A program made the position numbers and the translations under genes. DNA of 64,000 nucleotides, from the NCBI RefSeq assembly GCF_030384885.1, contig NZ_CP128613.1. One strand, written 5' to 3'. Below are positions 1 to 10,877 of the stretch, one piece after another. A model generated the notes under the pieces. The model did not search any database. It was not told the DNA's origin and was given only the letters and a program-made list of their open reading frames with translations. Each line of letters starts with the position of its first letter. The first letter of the stretch is position 1. The stretch is from Escherichia coli (GTDB taxonomy: Bacteria > Pseudomonadota > Gammaproteobacteria > Enterobacterales > Enterobacteriaceae).

Positions 1-401
1 AAAACGCGTTTCTGTCGCCACGCCCAGACGGACGGACTGACGTAATGAATGGTTTTGATACCCTGCTTTTTAAGATTACCTTCGAGGGTAATATTGAAGT
101 CAGGTGCATCAATGCCGACAAAAACATCTGGCTTCAGTTCGCCAAAACGCTTTGTCAGATCGGCACGAATATGCAGTAAGCGACGCAGACGCCCGAGCAC
201 TTCAACAATGCCCATCACCGCCAGCTCTTCCATTTCGTACCAGGCTTCGCAGCCTTCGGCCTGCATTCGTGGCCCGGCAACACCAACAAATCGGGCGTTG
301 GGCACACGTTCTTTCAGAGCACGGATTAAACCGGCCCCCAGGATATCGCCGGAGGTTTCTCCGGCGACCAGGGCAATCGTTAATGGACGCTGTTCAGTCA
401 T
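1..401 (-). CDS. lpxB: Lipid-A-disaccharide synthase LpxB, N-terminal part only (rest of gene lies beyond window start)
   Basis: Reverse complement of 1..401 reads [68 protein letters not shown]..., the LpxB N-terminus as I recall it; start overlaps lpxA stop; not in ORF track because truncated at window edge. Confidence 0.85.
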
Positions 402-1189
402 TAACGAATCAGACCGCGCGTTGAGCGTGCAAAGAAATCGGTAAACGCTTTCACTTCCGGATATGTTTCCGCCAGTTCGGCAATTTCCGGTTTCACTTCA
501 TCGAGCGTTTTACCGCTGCGATAAATCAGCTTATACGCATTGCGGATAGCGGTAATCGCCTCACGGCTGAATCCGCGGCGCTTCAGCCCTTCGATGTTGA
601 CACCGAACGGCGTTGCGTGGTTACCCTGCGCAATGACATAAGGAGGGACGTCCTGCGCCACACCGGAACAGCCGCCAACCATCACGTGCGCACCAATGAT
701 GCAGAACTGATGGACTGCGGTCATGCCGCCGATGATCGCGAAGTCGTCTACCGATACATGACCCGCCAGCGTTGCGTTGTTGGCGAGGATGCAGCGGTTA
801 CCTACCGTACAATCGTGCGCAATGTGCGCGTTGATCATCAGTAAGTTGTCGCTGCCCACCTTCGTCAATCCACCGCCCTGGACTGTGCCACGATGAATGG
901 TGACGCTTTCGCGAATGCGGTTACGATCGCCGATTTCCACACGGGTCGGTTCGCCAGCATATTTAAGATCCTGGTTGACTTCGCCGATGGAGGCGAACTG
1001 ATAAATCTCATTGTCGCGGCCAATTTTAGTATGACCATTCACGACAACGTGAGATTTCAGTACGGTACCCTCACCAATTTCGACATGGGGTCCAACGATA
1101 CAAAAAGGACCAATGTGAGCATTGGCGGCAATCGATGCGCCCTCTTCCACAATGGCGGTTGGATGCACAAAGGCGGATTTATCAATCAC
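401..1189 (-). CDS. lpxA: UDP-N-acetylglucosamine O-acyltransferase
   Basis: Track ORF 262 aa, [33 protein letters not shown] hexapeptide-repeat acyltransferase; position in lpxD-fabZ-lpxA-lpxB cluster. Confidence 0.95.
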
Positions 1190-1192
1190 GTA

Positions 1193-1648
1193 TCAGGCCT
1201 CCCGGCTACGAGCACACATCATCGTTGCTTCGCAAACTACTTTACCGTCGACCAGAGCAACCCCTTTAAAACGGGTCAGGCCGCGGCGCGTTTTTTCGAA
1301 AGTGACTTCCATGATCATTTGATCGCCTGGCACGACCGGGCGCTTGAAGCGCGCTTCGTCAATACCGGCGAAGTAGTACAGCTCGCCCGGTTCCAGTTTT
1401 CCTACGCTCTTAAACGCCAGAATACCTGTTGCCTGTGCCATTGCTTCAAGAATAAGCACACCCGGGAAAATCGGTTTTCCAGGAAAATGGCCCTGGAAGA
1501 ATGGCTCATTGACAGAGACATTTTTTACTGCGCGCAGAAAACGACCTTCTTCAAAATCCAGCACGCGATCCACCAGTAAGAACGGGAAACGGTGCGGCAG
1601 AAGTTCTAAAATCTCTTCAATCTGCAGAGTATGAGTGTTAGTAGTCAA
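1193..1648 (-). CDS. fabZ: 3-hydroxyacyl-ACP dehydratase FabZ; probable TTG start giving 151 aa
   Basis: Track ORF 1193..1741 contains ...[34 protein letters not shown]; the known protein begins MTTNTHTL so start placed at the in-frame TTG (residue 32 of track ORF); start coordinate from track arithmetic. Confidence 0.88.
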
Positions 1649-1752
1649 GATACTCTTCCTGTCAAAATATAAGAAACGACAATAATAACACGGCCTGCCG
1701 CAATCGTAAGAATGAGACAGGCCGTAAAGTTTGGCGAACAAAAGATGGAACG

Positions 1753-2778
1753 TTAGTCTTGTTGATTAACCTTGCGCTCAAGCGATTTTAAACGCTTGCT
1801 CATGTCATCAATGTTCATCACCAGTGCAGCGGTTTTGCGCCAGACTTTGTTGGGTTGCAGCGGAATGCCTGAGGAATAGACGCCTGGTTCAGTGATGGGA
1901 CGCATCACCATACCCATGCCCGTAACCGTCACTTTGTCGCATATTTCCATATGCCCATTGATTACGCTGGCTCCGCCGATCATGCAGTAACGACCAATTT
2001 TCAGGCTTCCCGCCATAATGACGCCACCGGCAACCGCCGTATTGTCGCCAATCACGACGTTATGTGCAATCTGGCACTGGTTATCAATGATCACGCCATT
2101 GCCAATAACGGTGTCATCCAGCGCACCGCGATCGATAGTAGTACAGGCACCGATCTCCACGCGATCGCCAATAATTACGCGACCAATCTGTGGGATCTTC
2201 ACCCAGTTACCCCGATCGTTGGCATAGCCAAAGCCGTCTGCGCCTACCACTGTTCCGGACTGGATCAGGCAATTCTGACCGATCTGGATCTCATGGTAAA
2301 TGGTTACGTTCGCCCAGAGACGCGAACCTGCACCGATTTTGCTGTTTTTACCTACGAAGCAACCGGCACCGATAATCACGTTATCGCCCAGTTCAACGCC
2401 GGACTCAATCACCGCGTTAGCGCCAATCGATACGTTGTTACCCAGCTTCGCCGTCGCGTCAATCACTGCACTGGGTGCAATGTTCTGCGCAGGCTGCGGC
2501 GTGGTATCTAAAATTTGCGCCATGCGCGCGTAAGTCAGGTAGGGGTTCTTCACTACCAGCGCGGCACTTTTCGCGAAAGGAAGATCGTCCTGGGTCATGA
2601 CAACCGCGGACGCCTGGCACAAGCCTAAATGCTCACGGTATTTTGGGTTAACCATGAACGTGATGTGACCTGTTTGTGCAGATTGCATGGACGCAACGCC
2701 GGTGATGACGATATCGCCATCACCGTGTAGTTCTGCATCCAACTGCTGCGCTAAATCAGCCAGTCGAATTGAAGGCAT
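1753..2778 (-). CDS. lpxD: UDP-3-O-(3-hydroxymyristoyl)glucosamine N-acyltransferase
   Basis: Track ORF 341 aa, [34 protein letters not shown]..., hexapeptide repeats; synteny skp-lpxD-fabZ. Confidence 0.95.
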
Positions 2779-2781
2779 TAC

Positions 2782-3267
2782 TTATTTAACCTGTTTCAGT
2801 ACGTCAGCAGTGATGTCTTTTACATCGCTGCTGTTGTAAGCAACGGCGTTTGCATCAACAACCAGATCGATATCCTGGCTGTTGGCAACGGATTTCACAG
2901 CAGTCTGGATACGAGTAACCAGTTTGCCACGTTCTTCGTTGGAACGACGAGCGCGATCCTGCTCAAAAGCCTGCGCTTTCTGAGCAAAAGTCTGGCGCTG
3001 AGCCATCACGTCTTTTTCCAGTTTGGTACGATCGCTGCCCGCTTTCATGGACTGCAGCTTTTTCATTTTAGCCTGCAGATCGGTTTCCATACGCTGCAGT
3101 TCGCTGGCACGACCTTTGAACTCATTTTCCAGCGTGTTAGAAACACCGGTTTTCTGCGCTACCTGCTGGAACAGGCTGCCCATATTGACGATTGCAATTT
3201 TGTCAGCCGCCTGAGCAGAAGTTGCCAGTGCTAAACCGAGACCTGCAGCTAATAACCACTTTTTCAC
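2782..3267 (-). CDS. skp: Periplasmic chaperone Skp (OmpH)
   Basis: Track ORF 161 aa with signal peptide [20 protein letters not shown] and coiled-coil-like K/Q-rich body; downstream of bamA. Confidence 0.95.
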
Positions 3268-3388
3268 AATAAACTCCTTACCATCCCATTTGCACCGGAG
3301 GGTGCAGTTCTTTGCGTGGCCCGGCGATCTTATATTGATCGCCTAAAGTCATCGCTACACTACCACTACATTCCTTTGTGGAGAACAC

Positions 3389-5839
<2,451 letters not shown>

Positions 5840-5850
5840 CTAACTAACTC

Positions 5851-7203
5851 TCATAACCGAGAGAAATCATTGAAAAGTGCAAGCCCCATTAACAGCACCA
5901 GCAAAATCGAGCCAATGCGATAACAAAAGTCTTGAACCCGCTCGGATACCGGTCCGCCCTTGATCTTTTCGATCGCAAGGAACAGCAGATGCCCCCCGTC
6001 AAGTACGGGCAACGGAAACAGGTTAATTATCCCTAAGTTCACGCTAATGAGCGCAAGAAACGGCAGGTAATAAACAACCCCGAGTTCCGCTGTCATCCCA
6101 GCCCCCTTGGCGATAGAGATCGGCCCACTGAGGTTGTTCAGTTTCACATCACCGGTGATCAATTTTCCCAGCATACTGACCGTCAGCTTCATCAGCTGCC
6201 ACGTTTTGTCCGTGGCTTCGACGATAGCGTTGAACGGCCCATACTGGCGTACAACTTTATACTCATCTGGCAAAGGAATGACTTTCGGCTCAATACCGAC
6301 AAAACCAATCGCTTTACCATTACCCGGTTTACTCTCCGGGATTAATGTCAAAGACAAGGGACTCCCCTGTCTTTCGATTTCTAACGCTAAGGATTTACCC
6401 GGGTTATCCCGGACAAGCATCACAAAGGTCACCCACTGCGTTAAGGGCTGACCATCGACTTTAACGATCCTGTCGCCTGCTTGCAAACCTGCCTTACTTG
6501 CGGCCGAGTTTGGCTGCACATTTTCCAGTACAGGTTCAATTTGCGGGCCACGAGGACGAATCCCCAGCGAAGATACCGGATCTTCTTTATCAGGCTCAAA
6601 CGCCCAGTGACGTAAATCGAGCTTTACATCCCGTCGTTGGTCGCTGCCAAATGGCGCTACCGTAATGGTGGTGCTTTCATCGCCAATTTTATCGACCAAC
6701 TGCAAACGCACGGCATCCCAATCAGGCGTTTCGATACCATCTACGGCTTTTAGTTCCGTACCTGGTGCAATTTGTGCTTCCGCAGCTATCGAATTGGCTG
6801 CTATTTCGCCAACCACCGGACGTACGCCAGGTACACCAATAATAAAAACCAGCCAGTAGGCAAAGATAGCAAAAATGAAGTTTGCAACCGGACCTGCGGC
6901 AATAATCGCCGCACGTTGGCCGACAGATTTATTATTGAAGGCATGGTGGCGGAGTTCCGGAACAACCGGTTCTGCGCGCTCATCCAGCATTTTGACATAA
7001 CCGCCCAACGGGATCAGGGCGATGACATATTCGGTGCCTAGCTTATCAGTTCGGCGCCAGAGCGCCTTGCCAAAACCTATTGAGAAACGCTCAACGCGAA
7101 CACCACAACGCCGGGCAACCCAGAAATGACCAAATTCATGCACGGTGATAAGTACACCCAGTGCAACGATGAACGAAGCCAAATCCCAGAGAAAACTCAG
7201 CAT
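5851..7203 (-). CDS. rseP: Regulator of sigma-E protease RseP (site-2 protease)
   Basis: Track ORF 5851..7248; HEFGHF zinc-metalloprotease motif, PDZ regions; start moved to internal Met ([26 protein letters not shown]) to give the 450-aa protein I recall. Confidence 0.9.
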
Positions 7204-7214
7204 AATACCTTCCG

Positions 7215-8072
7215 TTAAAGCGTCCTGAATACCAGTAACAACAAGCAAGCAAAGACCGGTACCGCAGCCGTCAGACTATCAATACGATCTAAAATACCAC
7301 CGTGTCCTGGAATTAAATGACCGCTGTCCTTAATTCCTGCTTCACGCTTAAACATACTCTCGGTCAGATCGCCGAGTACTGAGGCTAACGCTGCGACAAT
7401 AGAGCAAATGAGTAAGGTGACGGGAGCGACGTCGAGATTCGCCCACATGCCATAACCCCATGAGATTACCGCTGCAGTCGCGAGTCCACCGATAAAGCCT
7501 TGCCAGGTTTTACCCGGAGAAACCTTCGGTGCCAGCTTATGTTTACCAAACAATTTGCCAAACATATATGCGCCAGAGTCAGCGCCCCATACCAGGATCA
7601 TGACATAGAGCAGCCATATTGCGCCACTGTAATGATTCTCGTCGTAGTGCCAGGCCCGTAACGCCAGCATGCCCCAGAAGAAGGGAACAATGGTTAGCAC
7701 GCCAAAAATAATGCGCAATGTTTTAGAGTTACGCCAGATTGCTGCGGAACCTGGGTAAAACAGCACCAGCAATAGCGCGACAATCCACCAACCCAGCGAA
7801 GCCCAAAGTGAGATTTCAACCAGCGGTTGATGAATATTTCGGTGATATTCCGGCAACAGAAAAAGCATCAGCGCCAACAATAACCCACATAACACCGCCA
7901 ACCATACTCGCTGCGAGCGAGTGGTAAAACCGCTAAGCTGTCCCCATTCCCACGCTGCCAGCATGCAGACCACCAGCGTTACAATGGCGAACCCCACCGG
8001 CGGCAACAGAAACAATGCCGCGATGACGACGGGTATTAACACAAAAGCAGATATCAGGCGATACTTCAGCAA
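7215..8072 (-). CDS. cdsA: CDP-diglyceride synthase (phosphatidate cytidylyltransferase)
   Basis: Track ORF 285 aa, polytopic membrane protein [23 protein letters not shown]...; synteny uppS-cdsA-rseP. Confidence 0.9.
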
Positions 8073-8084
8073 AAGCGACCCCCA

Positions 8085-8846
8085 TCAGGCTGTTTCATCA
8101 CCGGGCTCGGTGCCGCCGAAACGACGCTCTCGATTAGCAAAGGCATTTAACGCCCCTTCAAAGTCTTGTTCATCGAAATCGGGCCAGAGAACATCTGTAA
8201 AGTAAAGTTCGGCATAGGCAATTTGCCAAAGCAAAAAGTTACTAATGCGATGCTCCCCCCCAGTCCTAATTACTAAATCTACAGGGGCCAGTTCATGCAT
8301 ACAGACATGCTGGTTTAGCATCTCTTCATCTATCTGATCTGGTTGCAGGTTTCCTTGCTGCACCTTTTCAGCCAGTTGCCTGACTCCCTGGACTATATCC
8401 CAACGTCCACCGTAGTTCGCCGCAATATTCAGCGTTAGACCGGTATTTCCGGCTGTTAGCGCTTCCGATTTACGAATACGTTCTTGCAAACGCGAGTTAA
8501 AGCGACTGGTATCGCCAATAATACGCAGACGTACGTTATGTCGGTGCAGACTCTTTACTTCGCTATCAAGCGCCCACACAAACAGTTCCATTAACGCACT
8601 GACTTCCTGCGCTGGTCGGTTCCAGTTTTCACTACTAAAGGCATACAGAGTTAACGCCTCAATACCGTTGTTGGCCGCAAAAGAGACAGCCCGGCGGACG
8701 GATTTTGCCCCGGCTTTATGCCCAAAGGCACGAATCTTCCCTTGCTTTTTTGCCCAGCGACCATTGCCGTCCATAATGATCGCAACATGACGACAGCCAT
8801 GCGCTGGCAATTTTTCGCTAAGTGGTTGAGTAGCAGACAACATCAC
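8085..8846 (-). CDS. uppS: Undecaprenyl pyrophosphate synthase
   Basis: Track ORF 253 aa, HVAIIMDGNGRWAKKQGK cis-prenyltransferase signature; synteny. Confidence 0.95.
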   Translation of the reverse strand: MMLSATQPLSEKLPAHGCRHVAIIMDGNGRWAKKQGKIRAFGHKAGAKSVRRAVSFAANNGIEALTLYAFSSENWNRPAQEVSALMELFVWALDSEVKSLHRHNVRLRIIGDTSRFNSRLQERIRKSEALTAGNTGLTLNIAANYGGRWDIVQGVRQLAEKVQQGNLQPDQIDEEMLNQHVCMHELAPVDLVIRTGGEHRISNFLLWQIAYAELYFTDVLWPDFDEQDFEGALNAFANRERRFGGTEPGDETA

Positions 8847-9031
8847 GCGTTTCTTATTCCCTGACAGGGTTTACGGTACTCAGGAATACTGAAGCCTATA
8901 CAAAAAAAAGCCGTGTAAAACCACGGCATACCTGACCTTATAAAGCCAACTACTTATGGTCAGATGGCGCAGACTATATCACTGAAGCCCTACGCTAACA
9001 AATAGCACGACTCTCTGTAGCCGGATTATCC

Positions 9032-10228
9032 TCAGCTTGCGAGACGCATCACCTCTTTTCTGGCGACTTCACGCGCGTTCGCATCAACAGATAACACATC
9101 GTCCACACATTGTGGTTCGCGCATATCCATTTTTTCCAGTACGGATAAATTCAACGCGGCGATATCCGTAAAGCGGATTTGTTGCGCAAGAAAAGCAGCA
9201 ACGGTGATTTCGTTTGCGGCATTCAATGCTGTCGTCGCTGCCTGGCCTTGTTCGAACGCCTCCATCGCCAGTTTCAGGCATGGATAACGATCATAATCCG
9301 GTGCGGCAAATGTCAACGCACTGAGTTTGCAAAAATCGAGCGGCTTCACACCAGAGTTCACGCGATTCGGCCAGGCCATGGTGTGGGCAATTGGCGTACG
9401 CATATCCGGTTCACCCAACTGCGCCAGAACACTGCCGTCCTGATAACGCACCATTGAGTGAATCACTGACTGCGGATGAATCAGCACTTCCATCTGGCTG
9501 GCACTGGCGTTAAACAACCAACGCGCTTCAATGTATTCCAGACCTTTGTTCATCATGGTAGCCGAATCGACAGAAATTTTACGCCCCATCGACCAGTTCG
9601 GATGACGGCAGGCTTGATCCGGCGTCATTGTTGCCAAATCGCGCAATGGCGTCTCACGGAAAGGGCCACCAGACCCGGTAAGCAAAATGGACACCACGCC
9701 ATTTTGCTCAAGGTCAGCGTATCCCAGATTATGCTGGATAGGTTGCGGTAAACTCTGAAAAATGGCGTTATGTTCGCTATCGACTGGTAACAATTGCGCT
9801 TTACTCTGCTTTACGGCGTCCATAAACAGACGTCCGCAAGTGACCAGTGATTCTTTATTGGCCAGCAAAATGGTTTTACCCGCGCGGATCGCAGCAAGCG
9901 TAGGCAACAGGCCAGCTGCGCCAACAATAGCTGCCATCACCTGATCAACATCTTCAAGTGCTGCCATATCACAAGCTGCCTGCTGACCACTTAAGACTTC
10001 GGTGCGGCTACCCTGTTGCTGTAGCATCGTTTTAAGAAGTTTCGCACTCGCTTCATCGTCCATTACGGCATAGCGGGGAGAGAATTCCAGGCACTGCTCT
10101 ACCATGCGAGTGACATTTTTGCCTGCCACCAGCGCAACTACGCGGAAGTGTTCGGGATTATGGCGCACCACGTCCAGCGTGCTGCAACCAATCGAGCCGG
10201 TCGAGCCCAGAATGGTGAGTTGCTTCAT
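9032..10228 (-). CDS. dxr: 1-deoxy-D-xylulose 5-phosphate reductoisomerase
   Basis: Track ORF 398 aa, [39 protein letters not shown]; synteny frr-dxr-uppS. Confidence 0.95.
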
Positions 10229-10261
10229 GAAACATCCAGAGTTGAGACAGAATAAAAAGCA

Positions 10262-10306
10262 AAACGCCGCCAGCCGATCCGCAAGGATCTACTGAGCGGC
10301 GTTTTT
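10262..10306 (-). terminator. Terminator-like structure after frr (nested hairpins, U-tracts on both strands)
   Basis: AACGCCGC ... GCGGCGTT outer stem enclosing GATCC-gcaa-GGATC; TTTTT on + side and TTGCTTTTT on - side. Confidence 0.45.
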
Positions 10307-10319
10307 GTCGTTCAAGAAA

Positions 10320-10877
10320 TCAGAACTGCATCAGTTCTGCTTCTTTGTCTGCCAGCGCCGCTTCAATTTTCTTGATTGCAGCATCAGTCAGTTTCTGTAC
10401 ATCGTCCTGAGAACGGCGATCGTCGTCTTCGCTGATCTCTTTATCTTTCAACAGTGCTTTCACTTTGTCGTTCGCGTCACGACGCACGTTACGTACTGCA
10501 ACACGCGCTTGTTCTGCTTCACCACGAACAATTTTGGTCAGATCTTTACGACGTTCTTCCGTCAGCGGCGGCAGCGGAACACGGATGTCGCTACCCGCAG
10601 AGTTCGGGTTCAGGCCAAGATCGGACGCCATAATCGCTTTTTCAACGGCCGGAGACATTGAACGATCAAACACGTTGATTTTCAGAGTACGGGAATCTTC
10701 TACCGTTACGCTTGCCAGCTGACGCAGCGGCGTCGGCGTGCCGTAATATTCCACGACAATGCCATCCAGCAGGCTGGGAGAAGCACGACCCGTGCGTATT
10801 TTGCTGATTTGGGTTTTGAACGCTTCTACGCATTTGTCCATGCGTACTTCAGCATCTTTTCTGATATCGCTAATCAC
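10320..10877 (-). CDS. frr: Ribosome recycling factor
   Basis: Track ORF 185 aa, [40 protein letters not shown]; synteny pyrH-frr. Confidence 0.95.

Follow-up and report, generated by a model that had tools for sequence, protein, structure and literature searches.

The window, by which we mean the whole stretch of 64 kb of Escherichia coli DNA that was analysed, carries on its minus strand the gene order lpxB'-lpxA-fabZ-lpxD-skp-bamA. The 701 nt surrounding the junction of lpxD and fabZ (1150..1850) are 100% identical to E. coli strain 2013C-4282, and a query with this segment found a match in 5,423 of 5,426 complete E. coli genomes. The K-12 locus (fabZ b0180; NP_414722.1 / WP_000210739.1) has the same lpxD-fabZ-lpxA order and an identical spacer and start region; the differences between the strain studied here and K-12 are scattered and all lie outside the spacer, two of them, for instance, in the 3′ end of lpxD. 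The order lpxD–fabZ–lpxA is also found in Photorhabdus, Limnobaculum and Pectobacterium, and the adjacency of lpxD and fabZ is kept in Baumannia. The FabZ protein of the window is the K-12-type protein of 151 aa, which is recorded in the databases under the names of 93 Enterobacteriaceae. The features to which we refer below are the following, each with its basis in brackets.

401..1189, minus: lpxA (ORF list)
1193..1648, minus: fabZ coding sequence, 151 aa plus stop, 3-hydroxyacyl-ACP dehydratase (RefSeq WP_000210739.1, K-12 b0180)
1646..1648, minus: TTG taken as the authentic fabZ start (TTG conserved in all 81 Enterobacterales sequences; initiation peaks)
1653..1660, minus: Shine-Dalgarno sequence AGGAAGAG; its AGGA core occupies 1660..1657 and ends 8 nt from the TTG (anti-Shine-Dalgarno duplex, conservation)
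1649..1741, minus: 31-codon in-frame extension, considered spurious and read as non-coding spacer RNA (outside the FabZ models, unconserved as protein)
1739..1741, minus: upstream TTG opening the mechanical 182-aa ORF, not considered a real start (no Shine-Dalgarno sequence)
1680..1690, minus: conserved U-rich tail UGUUAUUAUUG, directly 3′ of the hairpin (published RNA 3′ ends at 1686/1685)
1691..1724, minus: conserved RNA hairpin CGGCCUG–(variable upper stem)–CAGGCCG, 13 bp, −19.7 kcal/mol (81 of 81 sequences)
1649..1752, minus: lpxD–fabZ intergenic spacer, 104 nt (base-for-base identical to K-12)
1753..2778, minus: lpxD coding sequence, 341 aa, stop TAA at 1755..1753 (ORF list and RefSeq annotation)

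The start codon of fabZ

The mechanical ORF that contains fabZ (1193..1741, minus strand) encodes 182 aa and opens not with ATG but with the TTG at 1741..1739. It consists of 31 extra codons followed by an in-frame TTG (1648..1646) and the FabZ N-terminus TTNTHTLQ; neither ATG nor GTG lies between the two TTG codons. A preliminary description of this DNA, made from the sequence, had reported an ORF running 31 codons upstream of TTNTHTLQ, and translation of the ORF confirms it: coordinates 1646..1741 comprise the 31 extra codons and the internal TTG. The same description characterized the extension as a Cys/Tyr-rich segment of low complexity overlapping the junction of lpxD and fabZ. With Tyr at 5, Cys at 3 and Phe at 3 of its 31 positions, the segment is indeed rich in Cys and Tyr, and also in Phe, but it is merely biased in composition rather than really of low complexity. 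Likewise, the extension does lie at the junction, where it starts 11 nt past the lpxD stop, but it is wholly contained in the 104-nt spacer, clear of the lpxD coding sequence. The Cys/Tyr bias results from translating the GC-rich 3′ arm of the hairpin described below together with the U-rich tail; the hairpin is followed by a U/A-rich tract (UGU UAU UAU UGU CGU UUC UUA UAU UUU).

Several independent lines of evidence indicate that fabZ is almost certainly translated from the TTG at 1648..1646 as a protein of 151 aa, and that the 31 codons upstream are untranslated spacer carrying a conserved hairpin. The RefSeq fabZ of the identical strain maps to 1193..1648, and K-12 b0180 gives the same 151 aa from TTG. 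Two equivalog models of FabZ match the ORF well above their cut-offs and over nearly their full length, NF000582 with 207.7 bits (cut-off 113, profile positions 1–136 of 137) and TIGR01750 with 199.7 bits (cut-off 155.15, profile positions 1–140 of 141). In both cases the match starts only at residue 39–40 of the 182-aa ORF; numbered along the 151-aa protein, this is residue 8–9. The hot-dog fold FabA-like domain PF07977 matches the FabZ ORF with an E-value of 4.9e-40, and a search of the 31-aa extension alone against Pfam returned no match. The structure of E. coli FabZ (PDB 6n3p) aligns to residues 31–182 of the ORF (E 6e-99), and the crystallized FabZ proteins of E. coli (6n3p) and Yersinia (5bux) both start at MTT… after tag residues. 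The translation contains the motifs …FFQGHFPG… and …LILEAMAQ…, which we take, from FabZ structures, to carry the catalytic His and Glu.

Signals for translation initiation also favour the internal codon. Upstream of TTG 1648 the sequence AGGAAGAG has an AGGA core ending 8 nt before the start and pairs with the anti-Shine-Dalgarno sequence at −4.3 kcal/mol, a duplex in the top 12% of those of the 2,239 TTG triplets in the window. Scoring of the region upstream of TTG 1741 revealed no Shine-Dalgarno sequence (+0.5/−0.7 kcal/mol). Scoring upstream of the internal TTG had been proposed in the preliminary description as a check on its claim that the in-frame TTG is the authentic start, and that claim is upheld by annotation, family models, structures, Shine-Dalgarno sequence, orthologues and initiation profiling alike. 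As for the latter, which was done in vitro as well as in vivo, the annotated start corresponds to K-12 position 202101, where INRI-seq peaks were detected in five of five replicates (26.7–56.1; Hör et al. 2022, PMC9825163 Table S2). A Ribo-RET peak of 239.6 from the data of Meydan et al. 2019 is tabulated at the same position (PMC9825163 Table S2), and both peaks are flagged there as identified. The INRI-seq template of fabZ included only 30 nt upstream of the TTG (PMC9825163); consequently, the upstream TTG was unneeded for initiation in that system.

No fabZ entry is present in the TRAINSPOTTER N-terminomics supplement, and a literature search on the TTG/UUG start, promoter, mRNA or transcript of E. 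coli fabZ found nothing on the start or the leader. The mature protein probably begins with TTNTHTLQ…, its initiator Met being cleaved off, as the general rule for methionine aminopeptidase would predict for a Met that precedes Thr. The position of the fabZ start is already settled by the current annotation and the published initiation-site data; it is ordinary.

The comparison with orthologues covered one genome per species for 80 loci of Enterobacterales, from Citrobacter to Yersinia, Serratia, Pantoea and Erwinia, which together with the window make 81 sequences. All 81 have TTG at the homologous codon and a FabZ of 151 aa, and all share an essentially invariant block of 13–14 nt directly upstream of it, ACAGGAAGAGTAT, or in general form (G/A)ACAGGA(A/C)GAGTAT(T/C). 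The invariance of the TTG and of ACAGGAAGAGTAT is to be set against the third codon positions of fabZ, of which only 9% are invariant in the same 81 sequences. The spacer itself is 99–278 nt long in the 80 other species, with its 3′ part of approximately 75 nt conserved and its 5′ part variable and sometimes carrying insertions. Its length modulo 3 is evenly spread (25/25/31), stops interrupt the fabZ frame in 62 of the 81 spacers (in 23 of them between the hairpin and the TTG), and an in-frame upstream ATG, GTG or TTG of any kind occurs in only 25. Among the sampled species an equivalent of TTG 1741 exists in Escherichia only. Moreover, over-extended calls read the conserved nucleotides in different frames, as AGRVV in Yersinia (…SAGRVVDSISFLDRKSIL) versus GRPCYY in E. 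coli. The stops, the mixed frames and the variable spacer length together mean that the extension is not conserved as a protein. Conservation of the 31 residues in orthologues was the observation that the preliminary description had named as speaking against the internal start, and it is not seen among the 81 sequences. The fabZ frame upstream of the TTG is open for 39 codons in the window and for 5 to 61 codons in the 80 other species, and an open frame of such length is what chance would produce.

In Pectobacterium and Limnobaculum the TTG is kept, and in the reduced genome of the endosymbiont Baumannia the TTG and the Shine-Dalgarno sequence are both kept. Photorhabdus has TAG at the position of the TTG and an ATG start one codon later. 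Judged from these comparisons, the position of the fabZ start is fixed to within one codon, and TTG is not absolutely universal. The retention of such a weak start codon suggests selection on the strength of initiation. Start codons that are not AUG and that set the level of expression are known, infC with its conserved AUU being an example. The fabZ start resembles it in having been retained, along with an invariant initiation region, across distantly related lineages. Unlike infC, fabZ has no known autoregulatory or discriminating mechanism, and the Photorhabdus lineage has switched to ATG one codon downstream.

Within the species, all 5,423 E. coli genomes match the 141 nt spanning the spacer (1630..1770) with an identity of at least 99%, whereas the surrounding 701 nt reach at least 99% identity in only 16 records. 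Within E. coli, the coding sequence on either side is thus more variable than the spacer.

Over-extended FabZ proteins in databases

The exact 182-aa sequence of the mechanical ORF has been deposited in GenBank for strains CFT073 (AAN78709.1) and UTI89 (ABE05705.1) and for Shigella (ABF02447.1, ADA72519.1). One could therefore ask whether it is a genuine, perhaps minor, N-terminally extended proteoform of FabZ initiated at TTG 1741. We find this hardly credible. Apart from the deposits, it has in its favour that the frame is open in Escherichia, E. albertii included. Against this, TTG 1741 is devoid of a Shine-Dalgarno sequence, most genera either lack the extension or have stops in it, the FabZ family models do not cover it, and the initiation peak is found at the annotated start instead. 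In addition, the region folds into a hairpin of −19.7 kcal/mol and RNA 3′ ends fall inside it. The deposits themselves are old automated longest-ORF calls, that is, artefacts; the 182-aa form is found on 19 contigs versus at least 1,000 for the 151-aa form. Their origin is easily explained: the absence, by chance, of a stop codon in Escherichia and the presence of a TTG without ribosome-binding site 11 nt after the lpxD stop are sufficient for the longest-ORF rule to yield a false protein of 182 aa.

The preliminary description had warned of an annotation trap for automated callers. This was true of the older entries and of other genera: about one-sixth of the best 120 database relatives are over-extended, by 6–57 residues, and they always read through …DRKSIL, which is the translated Shine-Dalgarno sequence. 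It is not true of the current PGAP annotation, which has the correct 151 aa. As a matter of annotation hygiene, an enzyme that is essential and a drug target acquires 31 false residues under the longest-ORF rule, and the false 182-aa protein, with its analogues in Yersinia and other genera, is still in public databases.

Other irregularities were noticed during this work. Protein clusters at 90% that contain FabZ also contain full-length LpxD proteins, and in a metagenomic protein of 208 aa the C-terminus of LpxD is joined through the spacer to FabZ; the mixed clusters, which were set aside, and the fusion are probably artefacts of clustering and sequencing. The mechanical ORF of rseP (5851..7248, minus strand) opens with TTG, is 465 aa long and shares nucleotides with the 3′ end of the cdsA ORF (7215..8072). 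Annotated RseP has about 450 aa, and the rseP ORF may be another longest-ORF over-extension of the fabZ kind. Starts other than ATG are dense across the cluster of envelope and translation genes at 401..10877 on the minus strand; in the mechanical ORF list, GTG opens lpxA, skp, uppS and frr, and TTG opens fabZ and cdsA. The use of multiple initiation codons has been reported for CdsA (2024 paper, PMC11448367).

A conserved hairpin and U-rich tail in the spacer

The conserved 3′ part of the spacer contains an RNA hairpin (1724..1691, minus strand) that none of the 81 sequences lacks. The 7 bp at its base never vary except for an A/G exchange, which makes a U•G pair and is tolerated only on the sense strand. 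The upper stem, by contrast with the base, is represented by 63 distinct sequences, all of which are still paired. An alignment-based approach, MAFFT followed by RNAalifold on 37 spacers, recovered only the invariant base of 7–8 bp with almost no covariation signal, since the upper stem is thrown out of register by indels. The RNAalifold output also contained a 5-bp helix between the Shine-Dalgarno sequence and the start (CAGGA/UYUUG), which is invariant, weak and not interpretable. We therefore replaced this approach by folding each sequence separately and by a test in which the 5′ and 3′ halves of hairpins were re-paired. In the 81 individual foldings the median stability was −22.6 kcal/mol, and shuffling the inner segment of a hairpin always yielded a less stable fold. 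Native hairpins had a mean of −22.5 kcal/mol compared with −19.1 kcal/mol for re-paired halves, and the native mean was reached in 0 of 1000 permutations, with kinship between species uncorrected. The two halves of the hairpin are thus matched within species, and the upper stem co-varies.

The hairpin is directly followed by the tail UGUUAUUAUUG, with 7 U in 11 nt, broken by G and A; its consensus across the order is GUGUU[AG]UU[AG][AU]UG. An A/U-rich stretch, the Shine-Dalgarno sequence and the TTG complete the conserved block, and the distance from the hairpin to the TTG is 40–42 nt in 76 of the 81 sequences. Four of the spacers carry insertions of 100–170 nt in their 5′ part that resemble intergenic repeats of the ERIC/IRU type. 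Such insertions are always upstream of the hairpin, and the block from hairpin to TTG is intact.

A scan of the spacer for consensus terminators found only a 5-bp sub-stem with tail, in the wrong register. An Rfam scan of 1100..3400 on both strands (E ≤ 1) gave no match, and the K-12 record has no feature annotated at the hairpin. The hairpin occurs once in the 64-kb window, and as a single-copy sequence it was rejected as a REP or other repeated element. Prompted by the SELEX peaks described below, we also inspected the conserved part of the spacer for a σE or σ70 promoter, but no acceptable −35/−10 pair emerged.

RNA 3′ ends and the possible role of the element

Published Term-seq data place RNA 3′ ends at this hairpin. 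The dominant end at K-12 position 202063 is supported by 2,986 reads in LB at OD 0.4 and by 1,511 reads in M63, and an end at 202064 by 1,217 reads in LB at OD 2.0 (Adams et al. 2021, PMC7815308 Supplementary file 1). All were classed as ‘orphan’ by these authors, and neither gene name, lpxD or fabZ, is listed in their table of Rho-termination regions (PMC7815308). The end at the hairpin is of moderate height, and ends of similar height are also found inside lpxD and fabZ (PMC7815308). Transferred to the window, the RNA ends in …CAGGCCGUGUUA/U at 1686/1685, that is, 5–6 nt after the last G of the stem.

The reading that we slightly favour is that hairpin and tail form a leaky intrinsic terminator, or attenuator, between lpxD and fabZ, which would be a weak one given the interrupted U-tract. 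It is founded on the invariant GC-rich base of the stem, the variable but paired apex, the conserved U-rich tail and the 3′ end after the stem. Such a terminator would have to be leaky, since fabZ, lpxA, lpxB, rnhB and dnaE lie downstream. According to this scenario, transcription of lpxD would meet the hairpin and tail, where part of the polymerases would stop, and those reading through would continue into fabZ-lpxA-lpxB. The A/U-rich stretch, the invariant Shine-Dalgarno sequence and the invariant weak TTG would then set the translation of FabZ, and the element may in this way tune the ratio of FabZ to LpxD. The 3′ end would presumably arise by termination, but a stop of exonucleases at the stable hairpin could equally account for it.

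Leaky intrinsic terminators inside operons are well known, for instance the intercistronic terminators of rplL–rpoB and rpsU–dnaG–rpoD. The lpxD–fabZ element is similar to these in several respects: a GC-rich hairpin with a U-rich tract lies between co-oriented genes of an operon, the RNA 3′ end is located just past the stem, and essential genes downstream need read-through. It differs from them by its interrupted U-tract and by a sequence that is unusually invariant across a whole order, and its role as a terminator is putative.

Plausible alternatives include a function of the hairpin in RNA stability or processing, or as a protein-binding site. It could keep exonucleases from attacking the upstream bamA-skp-lpxD message at its 3′ end, or serve as a 5′ stabilizer or recognition site for the fabZ message. 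We consider this a serious contender, though clearly a less probable one than a leaky terminator. The sequences of the stem base and of the tail are invariant throughout the order, beyond what the structure would need, the distance between hairpin and TTG is tightly kept and the U-tract is imperfect; furthermore, trimming by exonucleases would also leave a 3′ end 5–6 nt from a stable stem. However, an invariant stem base, a free apical stem and a U-rich tail are the anatomy expected of an intrinsic terminator, and neither a binding protein nor a cleavage site is known. An improbable alternative is that fabZ-lpxA-lpxB have a promoter of their own in the spacer and are transcribed independently of lpxD. 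It draws on genomic SELEX, in which holoenzyme peaks were centred at K-12 position 202068, about position 1681 of the window, for RpoE (30.9), RpoF (7.1) and RpoH (4.0), and on the prediction by the same group of an RpoD promoter, TCGCCA-15-TCTCAT, in the spacer. Nevertheless, SELEX reports binding in vitro at the resolution of the probes and demonstrates no transcription start, no σ70-like site turned up on the coding strand when the spacer was scanned for promoter consensus sequences, and the proposed hexamers are poor matches located in the unconserved part of the spacer or in the variable stem. The room available between hairpin and TTG is, moreover, only about 42 nt. Binding within the spacer is also reported by genomic SELEX for the RpoD holoenzyme, and in the SELEX table the RpoE intensity of 30.9 at 202068 stands far above most entries.

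Beyond a leaky terminator, the block of approximately 75 nt formed by hairpin, tail, Shine-Dalgarno sequence and TTG might be a dedicated cis-regulatory RNA, either an attenuator or a switch responsive to a protein or a small RNA, that sets FabZ against LpxD and LpxA and so balances phospholipid and lipid A synthesis. This proposal is tentative and, in our opinion, rather doubtful. A separate post-transcriptional input into fabZ is RyhB: on the basis of RIL-seq, fabZ has been treated as a target of this RNA, with the binding site inside the coding sequence (2026 paper, PMC13085923).

The hairpin and its tail are unnamed and unstudied, and they are the only part of the locus that might repay experimental work. 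The surrounding operon encodes three enzymes that compete for one substrate, R-3-hydroxymyristoyl-ACP. If the element does tune the output of FabZ, it would constitute an unrecognized control point in envelope lipid homeostasis.
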